Of a stretch of DNA of 64,000 nt, positions 1,322-44,225 are shown piece after piece. Each line of letters begins with the position of its first letter. The stretch's first letter is position 1. Made by a program: the position numbers and the translations under genes. Below the pieces are notes generated by a model. That model saw only the letters and a list, made by a program, of their open reading frames with translations. It had not been told where the DNA came from and searched no databases. This DNA comes from Candidatus Berkelbacteria bacterium (GTDB lineage: Bacteria > Patescibacteriota > UBA1384 > JACPKC01), in NCBI GenBank assembly GCA_016187225.1, contig JACPKC010000006.1, positions 89,051 through 153,050 of the forward strand, in the 5' to 3' direction.

Positions 1322-1762
1322 TTAAAGATCGAGTAAGGAATCGACCGGCAGGTCGGTTTCAATGAGCCGAACCTGCTGCCGAAGCGGCTCTGGCAATTGG
1401 TTCACCAGAACCGACATCTTGCTCGAGAGCGCGTCGATGCGAACTGGGGTCAAATCCCGCTCCGCCATCCGCTCGATCGCGCGCACCAATAGCGCTCGGG
1501 CAATGCCCTGCCGGCGCCACTCCGGATGAACCCAGAGGGCGACAATCGTCGGCTGGCCGGACATCTGCTCGCCCTTGGGCGCCAGCGTCACCGCGCCGAG
1601 CAATTCCTCTCCCTCAAGGGCGACGAAAACCTCGTCGCAACAACTCAAACGATCGCCGCCAAACAGAATGGCGATCGCAAATCGCTGATAGTGCGGCCGC
1701 AACGCGTCTACCAGCGTTGATTTGGAAACCGTTCGAATCTCCAAATCTCCTCCTCCTTTCAT
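1322..1762 (-). CDS. GNAT family N-acetyltransferase
   Basis: Acetyl-CoA binding motif (VALWVHPEWRRQGIARALL). Start moved to an internal Met preceded by GGAGGAGGA at 8-nt spacing. GC-rich. Confidence 0.8.
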   Translation of the reverse strand: MKGGGDLEIRTVSKSTLVDALRPHYQRFAIAILFGGDRLSCCDEVFVALEGEELLGAVTLAPKGEQMSGQPTIVALWVHPEWRRQGIARALLVRAIERMAERDLTPVRIDALSSKMSVLVNQLPEPLRQQVRLIETDLPVDSLLDL

Positions 1763-2158
1763 CTTAATTGCAAGATCGAAATTAGTTTCGACACTGCAAA
1801 AAGAGCCCCTCCTGCCCATAATCCGCCGGCTGGCGAAGGCAAGAGGGGAAAGTAAAAACTTTGCGGGCACGGAGTTATCAAGCTCGACGTGTCCGCATAT
1901 TCAGATTTTACCTCGCCGCGATGGTGGTCTCGGCTCGGGTTCGGTTCTGAAGAACCGGTTCCCGCCGTAGGCGGGACGGTATCGCCTTTCGCGAGGGTTA
2001 ACCGCCGTTTCGGTATCCCTCCTGCGCCCTGCATCTGATCCTTGCAAAACCATCAAACTTGCAAGAATCTCCTCGTTCCGTGCAGGGAACTTCGTCACGC
2101 TTTTTCAAGCGGACCGGGCTTCTCCGAGTCACGTCGGAGGAACAACGCCCAAAAAAAA

Positions 2159-2521: not shown

Positions 2522-2750
2522 TCGATGATTCCTCCTTCCTTTAATGATGGCCGTATTTATGGATAACGGCGGAACCAAGCCATTCTTGGCCAGCGAGGCG
2601 AGTTTTGAAAGATCTATTTCACGTCAGTGACACGCGAACGATCTTTCAGACTCGCCAGCCGCGATGCGGCGGTGAAGCTTGATTATCCATCAAACCTCGC
2701 CGCCACAACTTGAGTTGCTCAACTTCTACCGATCTCCTATACACCACTAT

Positions 2751-2775
2751 TAAACCGACTCTTCCAGTCCGACAC
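2751..2775. repeat. 25-bp direct repeat copy 1 (CTTCCAGTCCGACACTAAGTGTCGG) containing a perfect 19-bp palindrome TCCGACACTAAGTGTCGGA
   Basis: Exact 25-mer recurs at 3743-3767. The palindrome was seen directly. Confidence 0.85.
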
Positions 2776-3035
2776 TAAGTGTCGGAATATCGGAATATAG
2801 CTACCACGAGGAATTAGCCGATGCCATCTACCGGGCCCTTCCGCCGTTGCCGCCGTTGATCGACGACTTGCTCGATCACCTGCAGCACTAAGGCTCACCT
2901 CCTAAGAAGCGCCATGTTCTATTTTTAAACGCCAAAAAAGGCCGAATTACTTCGGCCCTCCTTGATTTTACGTTCACGCTCCCAAGAAGAGCCCAACCCA
3001 CAGGCTCCCTCTTGACTTCGCAAACGTTAGTTTGC

Positions 3036-3272
3036 TTACTCCTCCAACCGGCGGTATTCGCCCCGCAAAGCTTGACGAACGTCGTAACCCACAAACTTAA
3101 CGCCTTGAGTTGGCGAATCAGCTTGGCCTAGCGCTGGAGCCCGCCCCTCTTGATTTAGCCCGGCATCCTCTACTACCACTTCGTCCGTTCCCTCATCTTT
3201 CGGTTGACACGAGTTGGCGGCCGTTTGGGCTTCCAATTCATGCAAACTTATTTCTGTTGGCTCGTGTTCCAT
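3036..3272 (-). CDS. hypothetical acidic small protein (78 aa)
   Basis: Internal start MEHEPTEISL with AAAGGA RBS. Lies downstream of the 3301-3678 gene on the same strand. Confidence 0.4.
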   Translation of the reverse strand: MEHEPTEISLHELEAQTAANSCQPKDEGTDEVVVEDAGLNQEGRAPALGQADSPTQGVKFVGYDVRQALRGEYRRLEE

Positions 3273-3300
3273 CTTAAATCCTTTCTTTTTAAGGACCTGG

Positions 3301-3678
3301 TTAATTCTTGCGTGGTTTCCACCAACCTGCTGGCTCGGGGCCGCCGACCGCCTCGCCATCCCAAGTCGATTCAGTCCAATCCCAGATAGCTTGTGGTTCA
3401 TTGGGAGCATATTGCTCCGCAAGTCTGACAGTGCTAAAACAGTTCCCGCCGGTTACTCCTTTGTCATCTTCAAGACCAATAAAATCCATTGATTCTTTCG
3501 GCCCCCAAAATGGCTTTAACTCCTTTAATCGTTTACCTTGTCCAACCTGACCGTAACGAGGCCAGATGTGTAATCCAAAATAATCTACCGTTTGTTGGTC
3601 AGAGATTTTTTGGAGGATGTCATTTGCTTTACTCGCGCAACGCTCTTCATCGGGTATTCCTAATGGTTCTCTTTCCAT
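3301..3678 (-). CDS. hypothetical protein (125 aa)
   Basis: ORF with several conserved-looking Trp/Gly residues. No family recognised. Confidence 0.5.
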   Translation of the reverse strand: MEREPLGIPDEERCASKANDILQKISDQQTVDYFGLHIWPRYGQVGQGKRLKELKPFWGPKESMDFIGLEDDKGVTGGNCFSTVRLAEQYAPNEPQAIWDWTESTWDGEAVGGPEPAGWWKPRKN

Positions 3679-3742
3679 ATTTCTCCTTCTGATAGCACGA
3701 ATAACTCCTGCTATCAGTGAAGACCCCGATCCTCTGCCGACA

Positions 3743-3767
3743 CTTCCAGTCCGACACTAAGTGTCGG
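3743..3767. repeat. 25-bp direct repeat copy 2 with the same palindrome
   Basis: Identical 25-mer to 2751-2775. Together the copies bracket the two-gene minus-strand operon. Confidence 0.85.
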
Positions 3768-3836
3768 GAATACAGGAACCACTAATCCTTTTTTACGATC
3801 TCTAATTTCCCTTATTCGCGCCTCTGAAGCCGCCAG

Positions 3837-4760
3837 TTAGACGGATTCAGAAAGGCAAAAAGAGAGCTCATCCGCCAGCCGGCGGATGAGCTCATAGCTG
3901 ACCTGCAACCTTGCCAAGCCGGCAAGGCGGGTCGGAAACACGGCGGTCATCAGCGTGTTTCCCAAGTCCCTGACTCCGGCGCGCTCCCACTGCGGGGACG
4001 CCGGAGCGATCACGGCCGGGACGGCCGGTGATGCTTGTCTCGCCGGCGCTATTGCGACGACGAGACTTGGTCTAAGGCAAAACGGCATCACACGCCTTGC
4101 CTTAAAAAAAGTTATCCATGAGTGGCCATCGGGGAACCCGACAGTCCTGTTCGGTGCGAATGGGTTCGCACCGACGACCACTCTTAAAACTCCGCTGCAC
4201 CTGTGCCACCCGATGGTGACTTGCAGTGGGGTCGGACGTGGACGCGCCCGGTTCCAGTCTCCGACCCTAAAGAGAGTCGGAGTAACGTGCCGGCGGCAGG
4301 CTGGAACACCCCTGCCGCCGCCGGTTGGTCAGCTTACGGGGTCTGAAACCCCGTGCCGACTTTAAGGTGACGCATCGCGCCACCTCCCTTCCCCCCTTCC
4401 GGGGGAGGATTGATTTGCTGTTCGCTCCGCCGCGGCGTGTAGGCCACAGGGTTGCCGCATGGCCGAAGCCGCGACGGAGCGCAGGTTGCAAACCTAGGTG
4501 AGATTACCCCCTCACCCACGGGGAAATTTTCATTCCGGCCCTTTGCCCCAAAAAGGCAAAGGGGGCACCGCAGTCGTTCTACGCCCATCCAGGTGCACCC
4601 GGGTGAGTGGGGACGTAGCTCCCATTAAGCGTCGTTTTTTGCGCTCGTTCGGCCAGGAAGACGGCCTAGTGCTTGTACTGCCAGCGTTCGCACCCTGCGC
4701 TGGAGACATCAGTCCGTATTAACTACCCGCGCTGATGCGCCACGGGCAGATTTTTCAACC
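3837..4760. other. GC-rich ORF-poor segment dense in stable hairpins (candidate structured ncRNA or decayed element)
   Basis: No plausible protein in any frame. There are at least 8 stem-loops of 8-14 bp, e.g. GAGCTCATCCGCC/GGCGGATGAGCTC, CCGGCGGCAGG/CCTGCCGCCGCCGG, and CCCTTTGCC/GGCAAAGGG. Confidence 0.3.
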
Positions 4761-5707
4761 TAGGAGTTGATCAGCGCCTCGAGAACGAGCGCGATGATCT
4801 TCTCGGCGGGGATCGCCGACGTCATCCCCTGGGGCGACGCGACGAGGTCGGCGGGGCCACCCCAGCCCTGCTCCAGCTCTGACAGGCGCGCCTTGAGGGC
4901 CGCCATGTCGAGCGGCGCGGCCGAGGAGTAGCGGGCCACCGTCCACTTCTGGACGGGGCTCTCGTCGGGGCCGGCGCCGGGACGCAGGAAGGACGGGCTG
5001 AAGGCGATGACGACAGGGACGCCGGTAGCGTACCCGACGTCGAAGCCGCGGGGGCTATTGCCCACCACGATCCCGACGCGGTTGCCCGGCAGCACGCTGA
5101 CCTGGAGGGAGGCTTTCGCCTTCTCCAACTCTTCGCGCGCCGTGAACGCGAAGCCACCTATGACCGCGTCGCTGACCTCACCGATCAGGAGGTTGGACAT
5201 CCAGTCCACCTTCTGGTCGATGGTCAGCTTGCGGTCGAAGCAGACGTAGTCGCTGGCGGTGATGGCCTCCTGGTTCTCCTGGACGACCTTCAGGTCGCGG
5301 GCCTGCGGCCCGAGCCCGTCCATGCGGCCGATGGCCGCCACGAGGCGGTTGTCGATCTGCTCGCTCTTGCCGGCCGCCCGGAGGGCGAGCACGGCCATCG
5401 CACCGATGCTGTCCTTGTCGGGCCGGACAGTGGCGAAGATGGAACCCGGCGCGGGCAGGTCGACCGTCAGCGCCGCCTCGATGGCGGACGTCCTCGGGTC
5501 GCCGGTTGGGCCGTGCTGCGGGTCGAGGTTGAACGAGCACCGCTTGGAGAGGGGCGGGCTCGTCACCTCGATCCCGTAGACCGGGGCGCCGGCGCCGAAC
5601 ACCTTCGCGTTGGCCTCGGCCGCGGCCGGCACCTTGTCCTCAGGCCTCGGGTCGAGGCTCGCGAAGATGTAGGTCTGGGTCGTCTGCGGGGAAGGCATGC
5701 CGTTCAT
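4760..5707 (-). CDS. hypothetical protein (315 aa, very GC-rich)
   Basis: Strong AAAGGAGG RBS 7 nt before the ATG. No family recognised. Confidence 0.6.
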   Translation of the reverse strand: MNGMPSPQTTQTYIFASLDPRPEDKVPAAAEANAKVFGAGAPVYGIEVTSPPLSKRCSFNLDPQHGPTGDPRTSAIEAALTVDLPAPGSIFATVRPDKDSIGAMAVLALRAAGKSEQIDNRLVAAIGRMDGLGPQARDLKVVQENQEAITASDYVCFDRKLTIDQKVDWMSNLLIGEVSDAVIGGFAFTAREELEKAKASLQVSVLPGNRVGIVVGNSPRGFDVGYATGVPVVIAFSPSFLRPGAGPDESPVQKWTVARYSSAAPLDMAALKARLSELEQGWGGPADLVASPQGMTSAIPAEKIIALVLEALINS

Positions 5708-5889
5708 AGCAATGCCTCCTTTCTAGTTTCGACGTTTTTTGCCTGGCGTCACCCAGAGTGTTTTCCGGCCACGTGCCGGTGACATCTCGCTTTCCGTCAC
5801 AGACGGATTGAGGCGCAGCTACGCGCCCGGGGCAGTCACGCTCCCCGCCGAGAATCCGTAGCTATGGTGCTACGGGCTCGGTCGCCAAA

Positions 5890-6561
5890 ATGTCTTGTTG
5901 GTGGGTCACTCGTTGGAGTGGCGCACCAAGAGACATGCAACGAAAACATTGCTATTCTCTCCATATGGAGGGTGAACAAATTTCGTCGATGTTCGCGGAA
6001 CCGTACGCCGAACGGCTGACGCCGGAAGAGCGTCGGCGGCTGGGTGCGGTGGCAAGTCAATTGCTCGGCGTTGAGCCGCCAGCTGAGGTTCCGATCTACG
6101 ACCGGACGGTTGTCGAGGCGACATCACGGGTGTACAATCCCGAGTCGCACCGCTACGAACCACTCGTCAACGTCCGCGATCCTGACCGCTTACCCGAAGC
6201 TGCTCGGGAGGCGATCTGGGAGCACGAACAGGTTGAAGTGCACTTTCACAACGGACTGCTGCGACTCACTGGCCCAGCGATTGAGGAGCTCGAGACGACC
6301 GGATTCATCCCGAACGTCTACGAAACCCTGCAGGAGCTGGCGGTGAGCGGCAATGTCTTGGCCCATCCCGAGACACCAAACCTCATTCAGACAAATGAGG
6401 CGCAGGCGGCACTCGTGTTTGGGATCGTCACCTACCTCAAGAAACTTGAGGAGGAATCGACGAAACCGGCGGGTGAAGACCTGGCAACACTTGAGCGACT
6501 CTGGCGCTTGGGAGTTCGGATTGAACCAATTCTGCTGCAGGAAGGGAGTGAGACACGCTGA
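5890..6561 (+). CDS. hypothetical protein (start uncertain)
   Basis: Long ORF whose stop overlaps the next ATG (ATGA coupling). Confidence 0.5.
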   Translation: MSCWWVTRWSGAPRDMQRKHCYSLHMEGEQISSMFAEPYAERLTPEERRRLGAVASQLLGVEPPAEVPIYDRTVVEATSRVYNPESHRYEPLVNVRDPDRLPEAAREAIWEHEQVEVHFHNGLLRLTGPAIEELETTGFIPNVYETLQELAVSGNVLAHPETPNLIQTNEAQAALVFGIVTYLKKLEEESTKPAGEDLATLERLWRLGVRIEPILLQEGSETR

Positions 6562-6926
6562 TGACCGAGCCTGGCCATACCCACGCATCCATCCACTACA
6601 CCGCGGCGGTGCCTGAGGAACGCATCGGTCGGATTCAGCTCACGCTGCGCGACCGAAGGACCGATGCCACAATCGCCGAGGTGATTATCCTCTACGACGG
6701 TGCCCAGCCCGAAGGCTGGTCGTACGACTACCAGATCCTGGCGAAAAACCAGGAAACGGTCACTCAGCTCGCGCACCAGTTCGACACACCGCTCAGTGCT
6801 GGCGATGCGCAACTTGCGCCACACTCGCACCAGCAGTTCGACCGGCTGTTGGCCGATCTGTGTAGTGAGTACAAACTCACCTACACGGCACGGCCACTCT
6901 ACAAGCCACCTGGCCTGCCGTGGTAA
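6561..6926 (+). CDS. hypothetical protein (121 aa)
   Basis: Translationally coupled to the upstream ORF. Confidence 0.5.
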   Translation: MTEPGHTHASIHYTAAVPEERIGRIQLTLRDRRTDATIAEVIILYDGAQPEGWSYDYQILAKNQETVTQLAHQFDTPLSAGDAQLAPHSHQQFDRLLADLCSEYKLTYTARPLYKPPGLPW

Positions 6927-7103
6927 ACACAGCGAGCGGTGGTTGGCCGGGGGTATTCTGCCTCCGGCTTTTTCGTGGGTTTTTAGCGTGTTTTACCACA
7001 CGGGCCGCCTTCGGCCTTCACTCCTTTTGCATCCCGATCCGCCAACTGACGGAAAGGATTCGTCGGTTTAATCCTATTCGGACCAACTGGCTGTGCTAGG
7101 CAG

Positions 7104-7183
7104 CCTGGGGCGAGTGTTTCCCTATATTGGGTGTTGAAACATCCAACACACAATCCTGAACTATTTCAGGGTGCTAGTTGAAT
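7104..7183 (+). repeat. attC-like site 1 (prefix CCTGGGGCGAGTGTTTCCC, then ATCCAAC ... central palindrome CCTGAA..TTCAGG ... GTTGAAT)
   Basis: Fits the inverse core RYYYAAC and core GTTRRRY. Near-identical copy at 8401-8452. Prefix repeated at 7899-7918. Confidence 0.5.
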
Positions 7184-7363
7184 AGTTCCTTCCCTCATGT
7201 CGAGCCAAAATGTTCCCAAGGAGACCAACGAAACCGAAGGGTCGTTGGAGGTTTCCTTGAAGAAATGACGGCTCGATATGCGCGAGTGGGGAGGTTGGAT
7301 CGTAAGGATGGGAGGGGCGACCTCAAGATGAGCTCCGCCTGTCCTTACAAAAAACATTATTAG

Positions 7364-7408
7364 ATCCAACACCATTTGCTCAAATAGTCTTGAGCGTTCT
7401 AGTTGAAT
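7364..7408 (+). repeat. attC-like site 2 (ATCCAAC ... GCTCAA..TTGAGC ... GTTGAAT)
   Basis: Same architecture. Near-identical to 7931-7975. Confidence 0.5.
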
Positions 7409-7437
7409 CCAATGCAGCCATTCGATAGACTACTGCT

Positions 7438-7665
7438 ATGCGCAAGTTTTCAGTGCCAACCACCGTCCGAATCACACTCCACCAGGAAACCGACGGCACA
7501 TACTGGGCCGATAGCCCTGATGCGGTGGGCTGTTTTACAGTTGGTGCAACTATCGACGAGACATTGTTGAACATGAAAGATGCGGTTCGCACCCACTTTG
7601 AATTACCAGCCCGCGCGCCTGTCCAGCTTTCACCCACGCTCTCGGCCAAACTCTCCCTCACATGA
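7438..7665 (+). CDS. hicB: HicB-family antitoxin (UPF0150-like)
   Basis: Sequence YWADSPDAVGCFTVGATIDETLLNMKDAVRTHFE is typical of HicB-like antitoxins. Its stop overlaps the hicA start. Confidence 0.75.
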   Translation: MRKFSVPTTVRITLHQETDGTYWADSPDAVGCFTVGATIDETLLNMKDAVRTHFELPARAPVQLSPTLSAKLSLT

Positions 7666-7898
7666 CTGAACGCTGGCCAGCATTTGCATCGACTGACCTC
7701 ATCCGAGCCTTGCGAAAGCTCGGATTTCTGGTTGTGCCAGGTGGAAAGGGCAGCCACACCAAGCTGGTTCACCCCCGTCACTCCGGCGCACTGACGATTC
7801 CCCAATCCAAATCGCTTGGTAGGGGCATTCGGGCTGCCTTACTCAAACAGATCCACGCCATGGGCGTCGATCTTAGTGCACTGAAGCGCTCTCTCTAG
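7662..7898 (+). CDS. hicA: HicA-family mRNA interferase toxin
   Basis: GSHTKLVHP motif and small basic protein. ATGA overlap with hicB. Confidence 0.75.
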   Translation: MTERWPAFASTDLIRALRKLGFLVVPGGKGSHTKLVHPRHSGALTIPQSKSLGRGIRAALLKQIHAMGVDLSALKRSL

Positions 7899-7975
7899 CC
7901 TGGGGCGAGTGTTTCCCCATGTTGGATTAGATTCAACACCGTTCGCTCAAATAGTCTTGAGCGTTCTAGTTGAAT
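7899..7975 (+). repeat. attC-like site 3 (prefix CCTGGGGCGAGTGTTTCCCC, then ATTCAAC ... GTTGAAT)
   Basis: Starts immediately after the hicA stop. Same modules as sites 1 and 2. Confidence 0.5.
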
Positions 7976-8130
7976 CCAAAGCCAAAAATTTATCAAGTTA
8001 ACTTGATTAAAACCAGGCTCGAATCTTAGGTTTTTAACGTGATTTACCACACGGTGTTTTTCAACCCACCCAATCATGGCGAGGCGAGCGTGCTAGACGC
8101 CAATCTCCTTTCCGATATAGTAAAAATGTT

Positions 8131-8428
8131 ATGGTTAAACTGGCATCACAAAAATTTGCCAAACCTAAAATGGTCAAAATATCGCTTGATCGTGTTAGGA
8201 AATTTTACGCGGCGAGCGCCGTGATGCTTGATTTAGCCGAAGAGATTCTTGAGGAGCATGGCGAGTACACCAAGGAGTTTCTCGCTCGATAGTCTCAAAA
8301 GAGCCGAGGCCGACGTCAGGGCGGGCCGAGTGCAGACTATCCTGTCGCTGGACGAACTACCTAAACACGCCGAGAGCCACGCTATCGCGCGCCGTCGGTT
8401 TGTTGAAAAATCCAACACACAATCCTGA
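8131..8428 (+). pseudogene. frameshifted addiction-module antitoxin-like gene
   Basis: Frame 1 gives MVKISLDRVRKFY...EEHGEYTKEFLAR*. Frame 2 (ATG 8258) gives ...SLDSLKRAEADVRAGRVQTILSLDEL, resembling the C-terminal motif (RRLAEyeAGkvkTI..EE) of RelE/ParE-partner antidote proteins. Its stop lies inside attC-like site 4. Confidence 0.3.
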
Positions 8429-8452
8429 ACTATTTCAGGGTGCTAGTTGAAT
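8410..8452 (+). repeat. attC-like site 4 (ATCCAAC ... CCTGAA..TTCAGG ... GTTGAAT), with a second GTTGAAT at 8492-8498
   Basis: 43/43 match to the site 1 core module. Confidence 0.5.
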
Positions 8453-8541
8453 GCTTCCTTCAATCAGCCGACGATTGGACATCGAATCGTTGTTGAATCC
8501 AAGAATAATGACTGTTATTATCGAATTTGAAAGGTTTAGTT

Positions 8542-11886: not shown

Positions 11887-13029
11887 TCAAGCCGCGACGA
11901 GTTCAGGCTTTTTAACCGCTTTTTCGAGTTTTCGATCCTCGGCGGCTTTTTTAGCGGCGGGCGGGCGACGATCTTCAGGATAAGCCAAGCTCACTTTGCG
12001 TGAGTTAGTATCAATCGATAAAATTTGAAAAGTATCAGCATCACCGGCCTTCACCTTGCCTGCCAGCCCCTCGTCAACACTTACGCCAAATTCAGAGATG
12101 TGCATTAAGCCAACTACATCTTTGGCGATCTCAATAAACGCGCCAAACGGCGAAATTCTCACGACCGTTCCGGTAATAGCTTGTCCCGGGACAAATTCTT
12201 TAATCGCGCTCTGCCATGGATCAAGTACCAAGCGTTTCACTGAAAGAGAGACTCGGCCGCCCTCAATACTAATGACTTGCACTCGTACCTTATCGCCAAC
12301 CTTGTAGAGACGATCGAGATTATCGACTCGATCCCAGGAAATTTCCGAGATATGCACAAGCCCTTCCAGCTCGCCAATATTGACAAAGATGCCAAAATCA
12401 ACGATGCCAGTAACAGCGCCTTCGATTTCCTCACCTATTTTCAACTGACTCGCTCGCTCCTCGGCCAGACTATCACCGGCCGCCTTTTCAGAAAACACAA
12501 TCTTGTTATTTTTTGCATCGAGGGTAATGACTTTAGCCGAGAGCTCCTTGCCAATCAAGGTTTTGAGAGCGTCACGAATATCATCTTTGCGCCCACGCGG
12601 CTGATGCTGGGAGGCAAGCTGGGAAACAGGCAAAAAACCTTCTATGTTGCCATATTCAACAACAAGTCCGCCGCGATTGGTGTCTTTAACTAAAATTGTG
12701 ACTGGCATTTTGGCGTCGTAGTTTTCTTGGAGTGAAACGAGATGTCGCTCTTTATCGGCTCGACGCAAAGAGAGGATGGCGTACCCGTCGTCGTTTTCAG
12801 CCAAGAGAACGTAGGACGAAATTTCATCGCCAATTTTAATATTCGAGACAAGTGATGAAAATTCCCGCGCCGGAATAAGTCCCAACGCCATGCCATCGAG
12901 ATCAACGATGATGCGTGCGCGAGAAACGGAAACGACAATACCTTTGATTGTGATGCCCTGTTTGATCGAAATAAGTTTTTCGCCCAACTCCTCTGCCAAG
13001 CTATCCATGGTTTGAACAAGTGTAGACAT
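11887..13029 (-). CDS. rpsA: 30S ribosomal protein S1
   Basis: Repeated S1 domains. Confidence 0.85.
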   Translation of the reverse strand: MSTLVQTMDSLAEELGEKLISIKQGITIKGIVVSVSRARIIVDLDGMALGLIPAREFSSLVSNIKIGDEISSYVLLAENDDGYAILSLRRADKERHLVSLQENYDAKMPVTILVKDTNRGGLVVEYGNIEGFLPVSQLASQHQPRGRKDDIRDALKTLIGKELSAKVITLDAKNNKIVFSEKAAGDSLAEERASQLKIGEEIEGAVTGIVDFGIFVNIGELEGLVHISEISWDRVDNLDRLYKVGDKVRVQVISIEGGRVSLSVKRLVLDPWQSAIKEFVPGQAITGTVVRISPFGAFIEIAKDVVGLMHISEFGVSVDEGLAGKVKAGDADTFQILSIDTNSRKVSLAYPEDRRPPAAKKAAEDRKLEKAVKKPELVAA

Positions 13030-13112: not shown

Positions 13113-13188
13113 TGGTGCCGGAGGTCAGAATCGAACTGACTACACGAGGCTCTTCAAGCCACTGCTCTGCCAATGAGCTACTCCGGCA
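13113..13188 (-). tRNA. tRNA-Phe(GAA)
   Basis: Cloverleaf folded by hand. Anticodon loop TTGAAGA, 7-bp acceptor stem, encoded CCA. Confidence 0.8.
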
Positions 13189-13194
13189 TACGCT

Positions 13195-13270
13195 TGGTGG
13201 ATCCACTCCGACTCGAACGGAGGACCTTCTCGGTGTAAACGAGACGCTCTGCCAACTGAGCTATGGATCC
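13195..13270 (-). tRNA. tRNA-Val(TAC)
   Basis: Anticodon loop TTTACAC. Acceptor GGATCCA/TGGATCC. Confidence 0.85.
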
Positions 13271-13358
13271 TGGTGGGCAAGAGAGGACTCGAACCTCCAC
13301 GACCGCAATGGCCACAGGCCCCTCAAGCCTGCGCGTCTACCAGTTCCGCCACTTGCCC
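13271..13358 (-). tRNA. tRNA-Leu(GAG)
   Basis: Long variable arm. Anticodon stem CAGGC/GCCTG, loop TTGAGGG. Confidence 0.8.
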
Positions 13359-13412
13359 AAATTCTTAGAGCAGTCAAAATTTATCAGATGTGCGCGCTTG
13401 TGCCAAGACGCG

Positions 13413-13500
13413 TGGTGCCGCGGGGGAGATTTGAACTCCCACAAGCTTGCGCTTACAGCGCCCTGAACGCTGCGTGTCTACCAATTTCACCACCGCGGCC
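13413..13500 (-). tRNA. tRNA-Leu(CAG)
   Basis: Long variable arm. Anticodon loop TTCAGGG. Confidence 0.8.
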
Positions 13501-15132: not shown

Positions 15133-15267
15133 ATTTAAGAACCAAATGGAGGCGCCGGCGGGAATTGCACCCACGTGTAGAGGTTTTGCAGACCTCTGCC
15201 TTACTGCTTGGCTACGGCGCCTCATTCTGCCCGCGCCAAGAACATAAATAAATTAGATAAATTTGCT

Positions 15268-15342
15268 TGGAGCGGGAGACGGGATTCGCACCCGCGACCT
15301 CTACCTTGGCAAGGTAGCATTCTACTGCTGAACTACTCCCGC
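15268..15342 (-). tRNA. tRNA-Gly(GCC)
   Basis: Anticodon stem CTACC/GGTAG, loop TTGCCAA. Acceptor GCGGGAG/CTCCCGC. Confidence 0.85.
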
Positions 15343-44150: not shown

Positions 44151-44225
44151 GGGCCTGTAGCTCATTGGTAGAGCAGGAGCCTTTTAAGCTTCGTGTAGTG
44201 GGTTCGATTCCCACCAGGCCCTCCA
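44151..44225 (+). tRNA. tRNA-Lys(TTT)
   Basis: Anticodon stem GGAGC/GCTTC, loop CTTTTAA. Encoded CCA. Confidence 0.85.

Follow-up and report, generated by a model that had tools for sequence, protein, structure and literature searches.

Bacterial RNA folds that combine several helices with pseudoknots usually are riboswitches, ribozymes or RNA subunits of protein machines. The described systems that come closest to the case considered here are the orphan structured RNA motifs of the Weinberg and Breaker type collected in Rfam, the large non-coding RNAs (ncRNAs) OLE, ROOL, GOLLD, HEARO and raiA, the RNAs linked to a protein, such as the omega-RNA of TnpB and IscB, retron ncRNA and ToxI, and the terminators and stabilising stem-loops of 3′ untranslated regions, where stable hairpins slow 3′-to-5′ decay. 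We compare with them positions 3837-4760 of a 64,000-nt stretch of a Candidatus Berkelbacteria genome (contig JACPKC010000006.1, positions 89,051 to 153,050; this whole stretch is the window of the present text). The segment, rich in hairpins, lies on the minus strand just after a gene for a protein of 315 amino acids (aa), which is DHH/RecJ-like by its predicted two-domain DHH/DHHA1 fold only. Read from the stop codon of the gene, it consists of a motif of about 200 nt, a tail of about 670 nt made of local hairpins, and an intrinsic terminator. The pattern of substitutions argues that selection has maintained the fold of its first 200 nt, which is tied to the upstream gene.

The motif shares with the orphan motifs compensatory changes, a few invariant unpaired nucleotides, pseudoknots, a fixed link to one gene family and an occurrence in uncultivated bacteria and metagenomes; it differs from them in that it lies 3′ of its gene, not in a 5′ leader, and in that five copies are known. 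The 0.9-kb size of the segment, its high degree of structure and its place in a variable, mobile region recall the large ncRNAs, whereas no covariance model of these families matches it and only some 200 nt are conserved, the rest being a chain of local hairpins. To have a pseudoknotted RNA directly beside a nuclease-like gene, in neighbourhoods of the mobile or defence type, is a feature of the protein-linked RNAs; one of the related loci, L008, carries 1.5 tandem copies of part of the motif. The protein, however, has here a DHH/RecJ-like fold and is not a RuvC nuclease, a reverse transcriptase or ToxN; no guide-like or template-like segment is recognisable in the RNA, and binding to a partner is putative. 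Finally, while the segment ends as many transcripts do in a textbook terminator (3893-3853), about 20 hairpins over 670 nt together with a pseudoknotted domain of 200 nt exceed what termination or stabilisation needs.

The relatives of the motif stand next to relatives of the gene. With nhmmer, window positions 4595-4757 align with the 156 nt directly 3′ of the stop codon of the homologous gene in L001/L002 (E = 9e-6; homologous loci and contigs are designated by L numbers), and the same ordered elements were found by side-by-side reading of the downstream sequences in L006 and L008. The motif starts 6-11 nt after the stop codon in these four loci (window, L001, L006 and L008), which lie on unrelated metagenome contigs, the proteins of the latter three being 60-70% identical to that of the window. 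Helix P1 carries a loop of consensus G-Y-G-S-W-U-C-A-G, the last six bases of which pair with CUGAWS some 10 nt downstream, creating the first pseudoknot, PK1, where C:G is replaced by G:C and A:U by U:A from one locus to another. Hairpin P2 has 6-8 bp and a different sequence in each locus where it occurs. P3 follows (GGCY/RGCC, with GUUC/GAAC in L006, and the loop GACUUCG), then P3b (4-6 bp, A-rich loop), with changes on both sides in 3 of 4 and 4 of 5 pairs, respectively. A conserved junction AYKGRAG precedes P4: it reads AAUGGGAG in the window, ACUGAAG in L001 and AYGGRAG in most copies. The second pseudoknot, PK2, has its 3′ strand 8-15 nt after P4 in 5 of 5 instances, and its sequences are wholly different between loci (GGACUCCC/GGGAGUCC, GGACUCUC/GAGAGUCC and AGAGAGGGG/CCCCUCUCU, as against GGGUGCACC/GGUGCCCCC in the window, where the 3′ strand shares 3 nt with the 5′ arm of the hairpin that follows, 4563-4539). 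The fifth copy is a second, tandem and partial one in L008 (1588-1694; P3-P3b-P4-PK2, with GAUUCC/GGAGUC as PK2), about 80 nt after the first.

The alignment of the four loci and five motif copies was made manually, with gaps padded by N, and was built to fit the structure; it replaced an alignment of the raw sequences by MAFFT and RNAalifold that misaligned L006 and gave a spurious long-range helix. It holds 49 pairs in 7 helices, with 98.3% of the cells paired and 31 pairs changed on both sides. Not one of 500 column shuffles reaches any of five pairing measures, and when the 3′ partners are slid by 1-3 columns pairing falls to 35-47% with at most 10 doubly changed pairs, the outcome being the same without PK2. 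About 15 paired cells are G·U on the sense strand, which argues for an RNA of that strand. R1, a covariance model built on the P3-P4 module, gives the five instances 76-99 bits (76 bits for the partial copy of L008), the next best match having 11.7 bits; it finds nothing else in the window and the loci of the remoter homologues, nor anything in 706 kb of unrelated viral DNA. In viral contigs, a pattern derived from P3-P4 has no match, while one derived from P1/PK1 has at least 120 chance matches, and none of the 80 loci fetched holds the motif according to the covariance model. Homologues with compensatory substitutions, the usual mark of a conserved structured RNA, were found for 4759-4561 only. 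Given that compensatory changes appear to maintain the fold across proteins 60-70% identical, it is very unlikely to be accidental. A role of PK1 in stimulating stop-codon readthrough or frameshifting was considered and rejected: the frames downstream stay open for only 0-16 codons and lack conservation.

Several features orient the whole segment. Folding is more favourable by 37 kcal/mol for the minus strand than for the plus strand, while the means of shuffled sequences differ by 13; the minimum-energy structures of the segment contain 41 G·U pairs on the minus strand and 21 on the plus strand, and those of the distal 707 nt alone 28 and 12. The tail by itself has a minimum free energy of -386.9 kcal/mol (minus) against -351.1 (plus). 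Through G·U extension, many hairpins gain 2-6 bp on the minus strand, as with the stems of 14 versus 8 bp at 4106-4071, of 14 contiguous bp versus 6+6 at 4481-4423, and of 10 versus 5 bp at 4386-4364. Both flanking genes are on the minus strand, and the structure at 3893-3853, which has the properties of a rho-independent terminator, is the only strong terminator and faces the minus strand at its 3′ end. The G·U excess, the terminator and the strand of the flanking genes together point to a minus-strand transcript. Between the 315-aa gene and the motif no promoter can be recognised; with a gap of 6-11 nt, this suggests that the segment is the 3′ part of the mRNA of the gene, and we infer that it is co-transcribed with it and that the 3′ end is at the terminator.

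Table 1. Coordinates of the features discussed, in positions of the window.
Feature	Positions	Strand	Remarks
Order on the minus strand	315-aa gene 5707→4760; segment 4759→3894; terminator 3893→3853; D3 repeat 3767→3737; 125-aa gene 3678→3301	-	
Structured 5′ leader of the 315-aa gene	5708-5890	-	hairpin CCGGC-ACGUG-GCCGG upstream of ribosome-binding site (RBS); 5701-6150 has z-scores (z) of -6 to -7
315-aa gene HYW32_01740	4760-5707	-	G+C fraction 0.70; RBS AAGGAGG upstream; period-3 signal-to-noise 32.5
Conserved structured RNA motif	4561-4759	-	~199 nt; five helices and two pseudoknots; begins 10 nt after the stop codon (TAG, 4762-4760)
P1	4723-4749 (4749-4741 with 4731-4723)	-	9 bp; loop GCGCAUCAG; 100% of cells paired; 3 pairs changed on both sides
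PK1	5′ strand 4737-4732; 3′ strand 4707-4712	-	CAUCAG (P1 loop) with CUGAUG; 6 pairs, 100% paired
P2	4681-4703	-	hairpin CCAGCG/CGCUGG; 7 of 8 pairs covary (window, L001, L008); absent in L006
P3 and P3b	4627-4666	-	P3 GGCC/GGCC, loop related to GACUUCG; P3b GAGCG/CGCUU, A-rich loop CAAAAA; matched by model R1
P4	4579-4618	-	CUACGUCC/GGGCGUAG; 8 pairs, 4 changed on both sides; interior carries the PK2 5′ strand; CCCA follows
PK2	3′ strand 4561-4569; 5′ strand 4600-4592	-	GGUGCCCCC with GGGUGCACC; 9 columns, 8 changed on both sides; 97% of cells paired
Hairpin-rich tail	3894-4560	-	~670 nt; at least 18 local helices, 9-14-bp stems; G+C fraction 0.61; z -5.6 to -7.8 on minus strand
Intrinsic terminator	3893-3853	-	13-bp perfect stem (3893-3864; 9 G-C pairs), 4-nt loop GGCU, then U-rich tract UCUUUUUGCCU / TCTTTTTGCC / UCUUUUUG; from terminator scan
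Repeat D3, second copy of 2755-2785	3737-3767		between terminator and next minus-strand gene, on the low-G+C side of the G+C-rich block
Next minus-strand gene	3678-3301	-	125 aa
GNAT acetyltransferase gene	1322-1870		Pfam match; inside the island of the first 10 kb
HicB-like antitoxin/HicA toxin, first pair	7438-7665/7662-7898	+	Pfam E 2e-6 to 5e-19 (both pairs); same island
HicB-like antitoxin/HicA toxin, second pair	8527-8784/8762-9010	+	same island

That the segment is non-coding and exceptionally rich in hairpins, as a preliminary description made from the letters alone had stated, is borne out. Its period-3 signal-to-noise ratio, a test independent of the genetic code, is 1.0 as compared with 32.5 for the adjacent 315-aa gene; its codon-position G+C is flat, when the third-position G+C of the gene is 0.87-1.0; its longest open reading frames (ORFs), of 136 aa (plus) and 114 aa (minus), have no Pfam match; and the flanking genes, HYW32_01735 and HYW32_01740, have consecutive GenBank locus tags, as would be the case if no feature is annotated in between. 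The segment has 5 perfect stems of 9 bp or more with 3-12-nt loops, against 0.06 expected (500 dinucleotide shuffles, with a maximum of 2), and 8 of 7 bp or more against 0.7; windows of 924 nt over the segment rank first for hairpin density in the 64 kb. The minimum free energy of the whole segment is -436.5 kcal/mol on the plus strand (z = -8.55) and -473.4 on the minus strand (z = -8.96); in sliding windows of 300 nt, z stays between -5 and -8 across 3600-4650, whereas the neighbouring coding sequence mostly has values of 0 to -4, with few exceptions (e.g. 5101-5400). All eight hairpins that had been listed are where they were said to be, among them CCAGCG/CGCTGG, which is P2 of the conserved motif; the stem given as 11 bp, CCGGCGGCAGG, has in fact 10 perfect pairs (4291-4300 / 4311-4320).

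The same data bear on the suggestion, made in the same description, of a decayed element or a frameshifted gene. Spurious ORFs of 114-163 codons do exist, and one of 83 aa was picked up by gene calling in the Logan assembly; this ORF, however, forms a singleton cluster, pseudo-peptide scans of three DNA collections yield no relatives, there is no Pfam match, and the complete absence of a period-3 signal, with flat codon-position G+C, right beside a gene with such marked third-position G+C, contradicts a coding past. We therefore consider a decayed or frameshifted protein-coding gene hardly credible. A concatenated six-frame protein query of the segment was also negative, but it is unreliable since a known ORF of the window itself, P0039, was missed as well.

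Most of the hairpins of the preliminary description fall in the tail. No relatives of the tail came from blastn, nhmmer, covariance-model or pseudo-peptide scans of the window and of phage, plasmid, viral, metagenome and genome collections, and the covariance model detects no second copy of the motif in it. Its G+C fraction of 0.61 matches that of the gene block and not that of the host genome (0.49), so that the tail probably arrived with the gene. In the other loci, what follows the motif is of varied extent. The 624 nt after the gene in L006 (the motif and about 450 nt) are free of called genes, with z = -9.1 and a G+C fraction of 0.42; in L008, about 560 nt, which contain the second partial copy of the motif, separate the gene from a convergent one; in L001, a hairpin followed by nine U residues forms a terminator 8 nt after the 3′ strand of PK2, the RNA ending there, about 235 nt after the stop codon, and then come an RBS and a gene of 116 aa. 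A structured trailer of variable length recurs, its sequence does not.

The 315-aa protein is identical to GenBank HYW32_01740, a hypothetical protein encoded on a 161-kb contig of a Candidatus Berkelbacteria metagenome-assembled genome. An AlphaFold2 model made with 31 homologues has a mean predicted local distance difference test score (pLDDT) of 92.8, and the only significant Foldseek matches in the PDB are pAp phosphatase and archaeal RecJ/RecJ2 (8a8k, 7yik, 6tvv; E 8e-6 to 3e-4, probability 1.0, TM-scores 0.41-0.48). An invariant stretch, RPDxDSxGAMAVL (with D97 and D99), resembles motif I of the DHH family, and D130 is also present; there is no conserved DHH triad at the usual place, an invariant N60/D62/H65 being found upstream instead. 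Pfam DHH profiles match 0 of 31 family members and a profile search against PDB sequences was negative, just as the protein, like nearby hypothetical proteins, has no match in Pfam, PADLOC or PHROG. It has 37 homologues, the closest being 70, 62, 60 and 60% identical; when the contigs of homologues are compared by blastn and tblastx, similarity is limited to the gene itself, and tblastn of the protein against phages and plasmids gave no match. In L003 (9201-12876), a 45%-identical homologue lies about 2.3 kb from type III CRISPR genes for Cmr2 (Cas10), Cmr3 and RAMP proteins, with an opposite-strand gene of 729 aa between; in L005, the homologue follows an AAA ATPase and a radical-SAM protein.

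Conservation extends also upstream of the gene. Leaders of the window (5708-5890), L001 (4800-4970), L012 (134-291) and L008 (280-346) are related (nhmmer E 2e-10 to 1e-4), with a hairpin of the CCGGCAAAGCCGG type and a second covarying hairpin just before the RBS. A further non-coding stretch of about 100 nt is common to window 7190-7295 (minus) and to positions 1-105 of L008, where the homologue of the protein is 60% identical; at the core of the stretch is the hairpin CCAACGAAACCGAAGGGTCGTTGG, with 95% identity over 38 nt, a conservation well above that of the protein. This stretch lies 270 nt upstream of the DHH-like gene in L008; in the window, two genes of the opposite strand, of 223 and 121 aa, separate it from that gene.

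Taken together, these observations incline us, on balance, to understand the segment as the structured 3′ part of a minus-strand transcript that starts with the DHH/RecJ-like gene and that comprises a conserved domain, lineage-specific hairpins and a terminator. The domain of about 199 nt, directly after the stop codon, would be a dedicated companion of the gene, conserved as a fold and not as a sequence wherever the closest homologues occur. Because the upstream gene is constant while the downstream genes differ in every locus, the domain probably serves the DHH-like gene. What matters would be its folded shape, which would bind a partner, most plausibly the DHH-like enzyme or a nucleotide that is the substrate or product of this enzyme, and such binding would control the fate of the mRNA or of what lies downstream; alternatively, the domain may be an RNA partner of the protein. 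Some 670 nt of stable, lineage-specific hairpins would come next, and the strong intrinsic terminator would end the transcript. The distal hairpins and the terminator may be a barrier to 3′-to-5′ exonucleases and an insulator from the next gene, unless they were simply carried along with the transferred G+C-rich block.

A number of points weigh against this interpretation. A conserved complex RNA placed 3′ of its associated gene is unusual for bacterial cis-regulators, and the order motif-terminator-gene of L001 would equally fit the leader of the downstream gene. More distant homologues, at most 45% identical (L003, L005, L013, L014), lack the motif in their loci, which means that the protein does not need it universally. 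The motif is known in four loci only, and an alignment fitted by hand inflates the pairing percentages, something that the slid and shuffled controls correct only partly. The DHH assignment is one of fold similarity, with TM-scores of 0.41-0.48, where sequence profiles find nothing. The G·U asymmetry of 28 to 12 is one of raw counts, to which base composition contributes a little, as witnessed by the 13 kcal/mol between shuffled means. Co-transcription is deduced from sequence, and, for want of homologues, nothing can show that the structure of the tail is under selection.

It is therefore necessary to weigh what else the element could be. A serious alternative, if an unlikely one, is that the proximal domain resembles a riboswitch or a ribozyme acting downstream, with the formation of PK2 choosing between alternative downstream structures and so controlling termination, translation or processing. 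Two pseudoknots, covarying stems and conserved unpaired stretches (G-Y-G-S-W-UCAG, GACUUCG, AYKGRAG, CCCA) are typical of aptamers and ribozymes; in L001 the 3′ strand of PK2 stands 8 nt before the terminator, itself followed by the RBS of the 116-aa gene, in L006 it stands 6 nt before an AAGGAGG RBS, and in the window its overlap of 3 nt with the next hairpin makes the two structures mutually exclusive. DHH-family enzymes act on nanoRNAs and on cyclic or linear dinucleotides, so that a nucleotide ligand would make regulatory sense. Yet the downstream genes are not conserved among the four loci, the "gene" that follows the RBS in L006 has only 10 codons, about 670 nt devoid of ORFs follow the motif in the window, no riboswitch or ribozyme family of Rfam matches, and the alternative pairings sit in G+C-rich sequence, where chance pairings come easily. 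One may also imagine that the whole 0.9 kb is a single independent large ncRNA of a new class, of the size of OLE, ROOL or GOLLD, in which only the 5′ domain is conserved enough to be detected with few relatives. High structure does run without interruption on one strand from 4759 to 3853, where the single terminator ends it, and in L006 and L008, too, the gene is followed by a long structured region devoid of called genes, of at least 624 nt (z = -9.1) and about 560 nt, respectively. We find this quite improbable all the same: the tail is unlike those of L001, L006 and L008 (blastn, tblastx, nhmmer, covariance model), the RNA of L001 stops at its terminator, some 235 nt past the stop codon, local near-perfect hairpins, and not multi-stem junctions with conserved single-stranded regions, make up most of the tail, and there is no recognisable promoter between gene and motif.

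Other explanations do without a function for the RNA or for part of it. The tail (3894-4560) could be functionless, foreign G+C-rich intergenic DNA carried in with the gene, for example terminators and palindromes left over after gene loss in a variable island. While we would bet against it, this possibility deserves real weight: the tail has no homologue in the collections searched, it belongs to an island that is a mosaic in G+C, with dispersed repeats, two HicBA pairs and a GNAT gene, and the flanking intergenic stretch of the same block is structured as well (5701-6150, z -6 to -7). Some 20 hairpins with stems of 9-14 bp in 670 nt are nevertheless far beyond a few relic terminators; neutral decay should erode perfect stems; a G·U excess on one strand (28 versus 12) is unexpected for DNA palindromes decaying at random; and there is no trace of past coding. 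The tail is a case in which strong predicted structure alone cannot tell function from baggage. As for explanations at the DNA level, where the element would be a recombination site folded as a single strand, as in integron attC, or an origin or the end of a transposon, and would mark the 3′ limit of a mobile gene cassette, they fit poorly and we deem them very improbable. attC sites follow the stop codon of the cassette gene and are conserved in structure rather than in sequence, two properties of the present motif; short palindromic repeats whose ends fit RYYYAAC and GTTRRRY are found nearby (7141-8498), and the 9-mer AGACGGATT, at 3839 and 5801, roughly brackets the G+C-rich block. A scan for complementary cores, however, reveals no RYYYAAC...GTTRRRY pair in 3700-5900, the only cluster being that of 7141-8498; five separate helices and two pseudoknots are not the one long imperfect hairpin of attC (57-141 nt); the 15 or so G·U cells of the sense strand would be A·C mismatches on the other; no integrase or transposase is seen in the neighbourhood, whether within the window or in the adjoining 5.3 kb on the left; and AGACGGATT, with 4 exact occurrences in the window and 8 at no more than one mismatch against a shuffle mean of 15, may stand at the edges by chance.

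To judge from the models and collections searched, the segment belongs to no known RNA family, and the motif is a previously undescribed fold, absent from Rfam. When the whole window was run with cmscan against the 4,227 models of Rfam 15, only seven transfer RNAs (tRNAs), elsewhere, reached the gathering score; on both strands of 3600-4900, with permissive filters and E <= 10, 13 weak chance matches came up, to microRNA and small-RNA models only, and among them none to a group II intron, GOLLD, ROOL, OLE, HEARO, raiA, RNase P, transfer-messenger RNA, cobalamin, any riboswitch or ribozyme. The homologous regions of L001, L006, L008 and L012 have no match to a large ncRNA at E <= 1, and no Rfam family falls at the motif in the four loci. 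The candidates that the preliminary description had named, an ORF-less group II intron or an RNA of the GOLLD, ROOL or OLE class, thus find no support in Rfam 15 even at E <= 10. Its broader idea of a large structured RNA holds for the 200 nt next to the upstream gene, which have a conserved, covarying and strand-specific fold, and not for a single conserved RNA of 0.9 kb, as only these 200 nt have homologues; likewise, the conservation and covariation it called for were seen in 4759-4561, in four loci, while for 4560-3894 no homologues were found.

Other searches and candidates may be listed briefly. Nothing similar to the segment occurs elsewhere in the window, blastn searches of phages and plasmids were negative, pseudo-peptide scans of both its halves gave no relatives in metagenome, genome and viral collections, and a scan of genome contigs with a neighbouring gene of 446 aa gave no related genome. 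A group II intron was rejected for lack of a match to the Rfam models. The segment is flanked by two complete genes and interrupts neither. No repeats within the segment or copies of it elsewhere in the window speak for a CRISPR array, tandem repeats, or copies of repetitive extragenic palindromes or miniature inverted-repeat transposable elements; the RNA of type III toxin-antitoxin systems, with its tandem direct repeats of about 35 nt, was dismissed for want of tandem or dispersed repeats in the segment and of a second copy of the motif in the window. Exact hairpin patterns had two matches in viral contigs (L010, L011), which are generic G+C-rich terminator hairpins and chance matches.

The surroundings of the gene are those of a mosaic. 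Over the first 10 kb of the window the G+C fraction varies between 0.40 and 0.73, ORFs are short and mostly hypothetical, and repeats are dispersed; this is a variable island, probably acquired horizontally. From about 10.5 kb on come ordinary chromosomal genes: an S1-like protein (11887-13029), tRNAs, a solute-binding protein and a pseudouridine synthase. The seven tRNA genes are at 13116-13499, 15150-15342 and 44151-44222, six of them in two clusters just past the island and the S1-like gene. To the left of the window (L016 211-4446; 5.3 kb left of position 1), a helicase-family protein of 1,411 aa (DEAD/ResIII) accompanies a hypothetical protein of 243 aa, which is consistent with an island of the defence or mobile type. 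An independent contig of the Logan assembly (L009, 4,515 nt) is 100% identical to window 2656-7170, so that neither the segment nor its two junctions can be put down to an artefact of one assembly; the Logan contigs derive from run SRR12113424. Gene, 5′ leader, motif and tail are all G+C-rich (0.60-0.73, against 0.49 for genome and window) and, sharing this composition, probably arrived as one block. The DHH-like gene itself exceeds its surroundings in G+C in the window (0.70 versus 0.49) and also in L006 and L008 (0.60 versus 0.43-0.45 and 0.62 versus 0.45-0.53); this excess in three backgrounds suggests repeated recent transfer from a high-G+C donor.

Several repeats were noted in passing. 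Repeat D3 (CCGACACTTCCAGTCCGACACTAAGTGTCGG; 31 nt, 97% identical, about 50 nt being alignable) occurs upstream of minus-strand genes in two copies 982 bp apart; it probably serves these genes as a common promoter or operator, or else delimits a unit, and the copy at 3737-3767 probably belongs to the control region of the next gene. The 9-mer AGACGGATT stands in direct orientation at 3839-3847 and 5801-5809, 1,962 bp apart, near the edges of the G+C-rich block, its 4 exact occurrences in the window being distributed over both strands; related strings, GAATCCGTC and GACGGAT, lie upstream of the homologue in L008 (216-236). The pair could be a recombination core or a coincidence. A target-site duplication of 9 bp was rejected: the window is not enriched in copies of the 9-mer, one mismatch at most being allowed, and shows no evident terminal inverted repeats, which leaves the coincidence unexplained. 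Two families of repeats of 57-66 nt, 92-93% identical (7132-7197, 7359-7415, 7926-7982, 8401-8466), have the form ATCCAAC - short perfect hairpin - CTAGTTGAAT and are accompanied by GTTGAAT at 8492-8498. Their ends fit the core consensus of integron attC (RYYYAAC / GTTRRRY), five complementary pairs of this kind being present in 1.4 kb where the other 62 kb have one chance pair; they flank small cassette-like units, including HicB/HicA, with no integrase seen. They could be attC-like sites, or operator or promoter repeats of HicB.

What this locus may mean is best seen from the pair that it joins. The motif accompanies an uncharacterised DHH/RecJ-like family, one distant member of which lies near type III CRISPR genes. 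It is tempting, though at this stage rather speculative, to see in the two-pseudoknot domain a new class of functional RNA tied to a DHH/RecJ-like enzyme in islands of the mobile or defence type: a sensor of substrate or product (a riboswitch for a nanoRNA or a cyclic oligonucleotide), a self-processing ribozyme, or an RNA subunit or inhibitor of the enzyme, with the tail as part of the same RNA. An RNA of about 200 nt and one protein of 315 aa make a small experimental target. Uncultivated genomes of the Candidate Phyla Radiation, as this case suggests, carry horizontally acquired RNA-protein modules.

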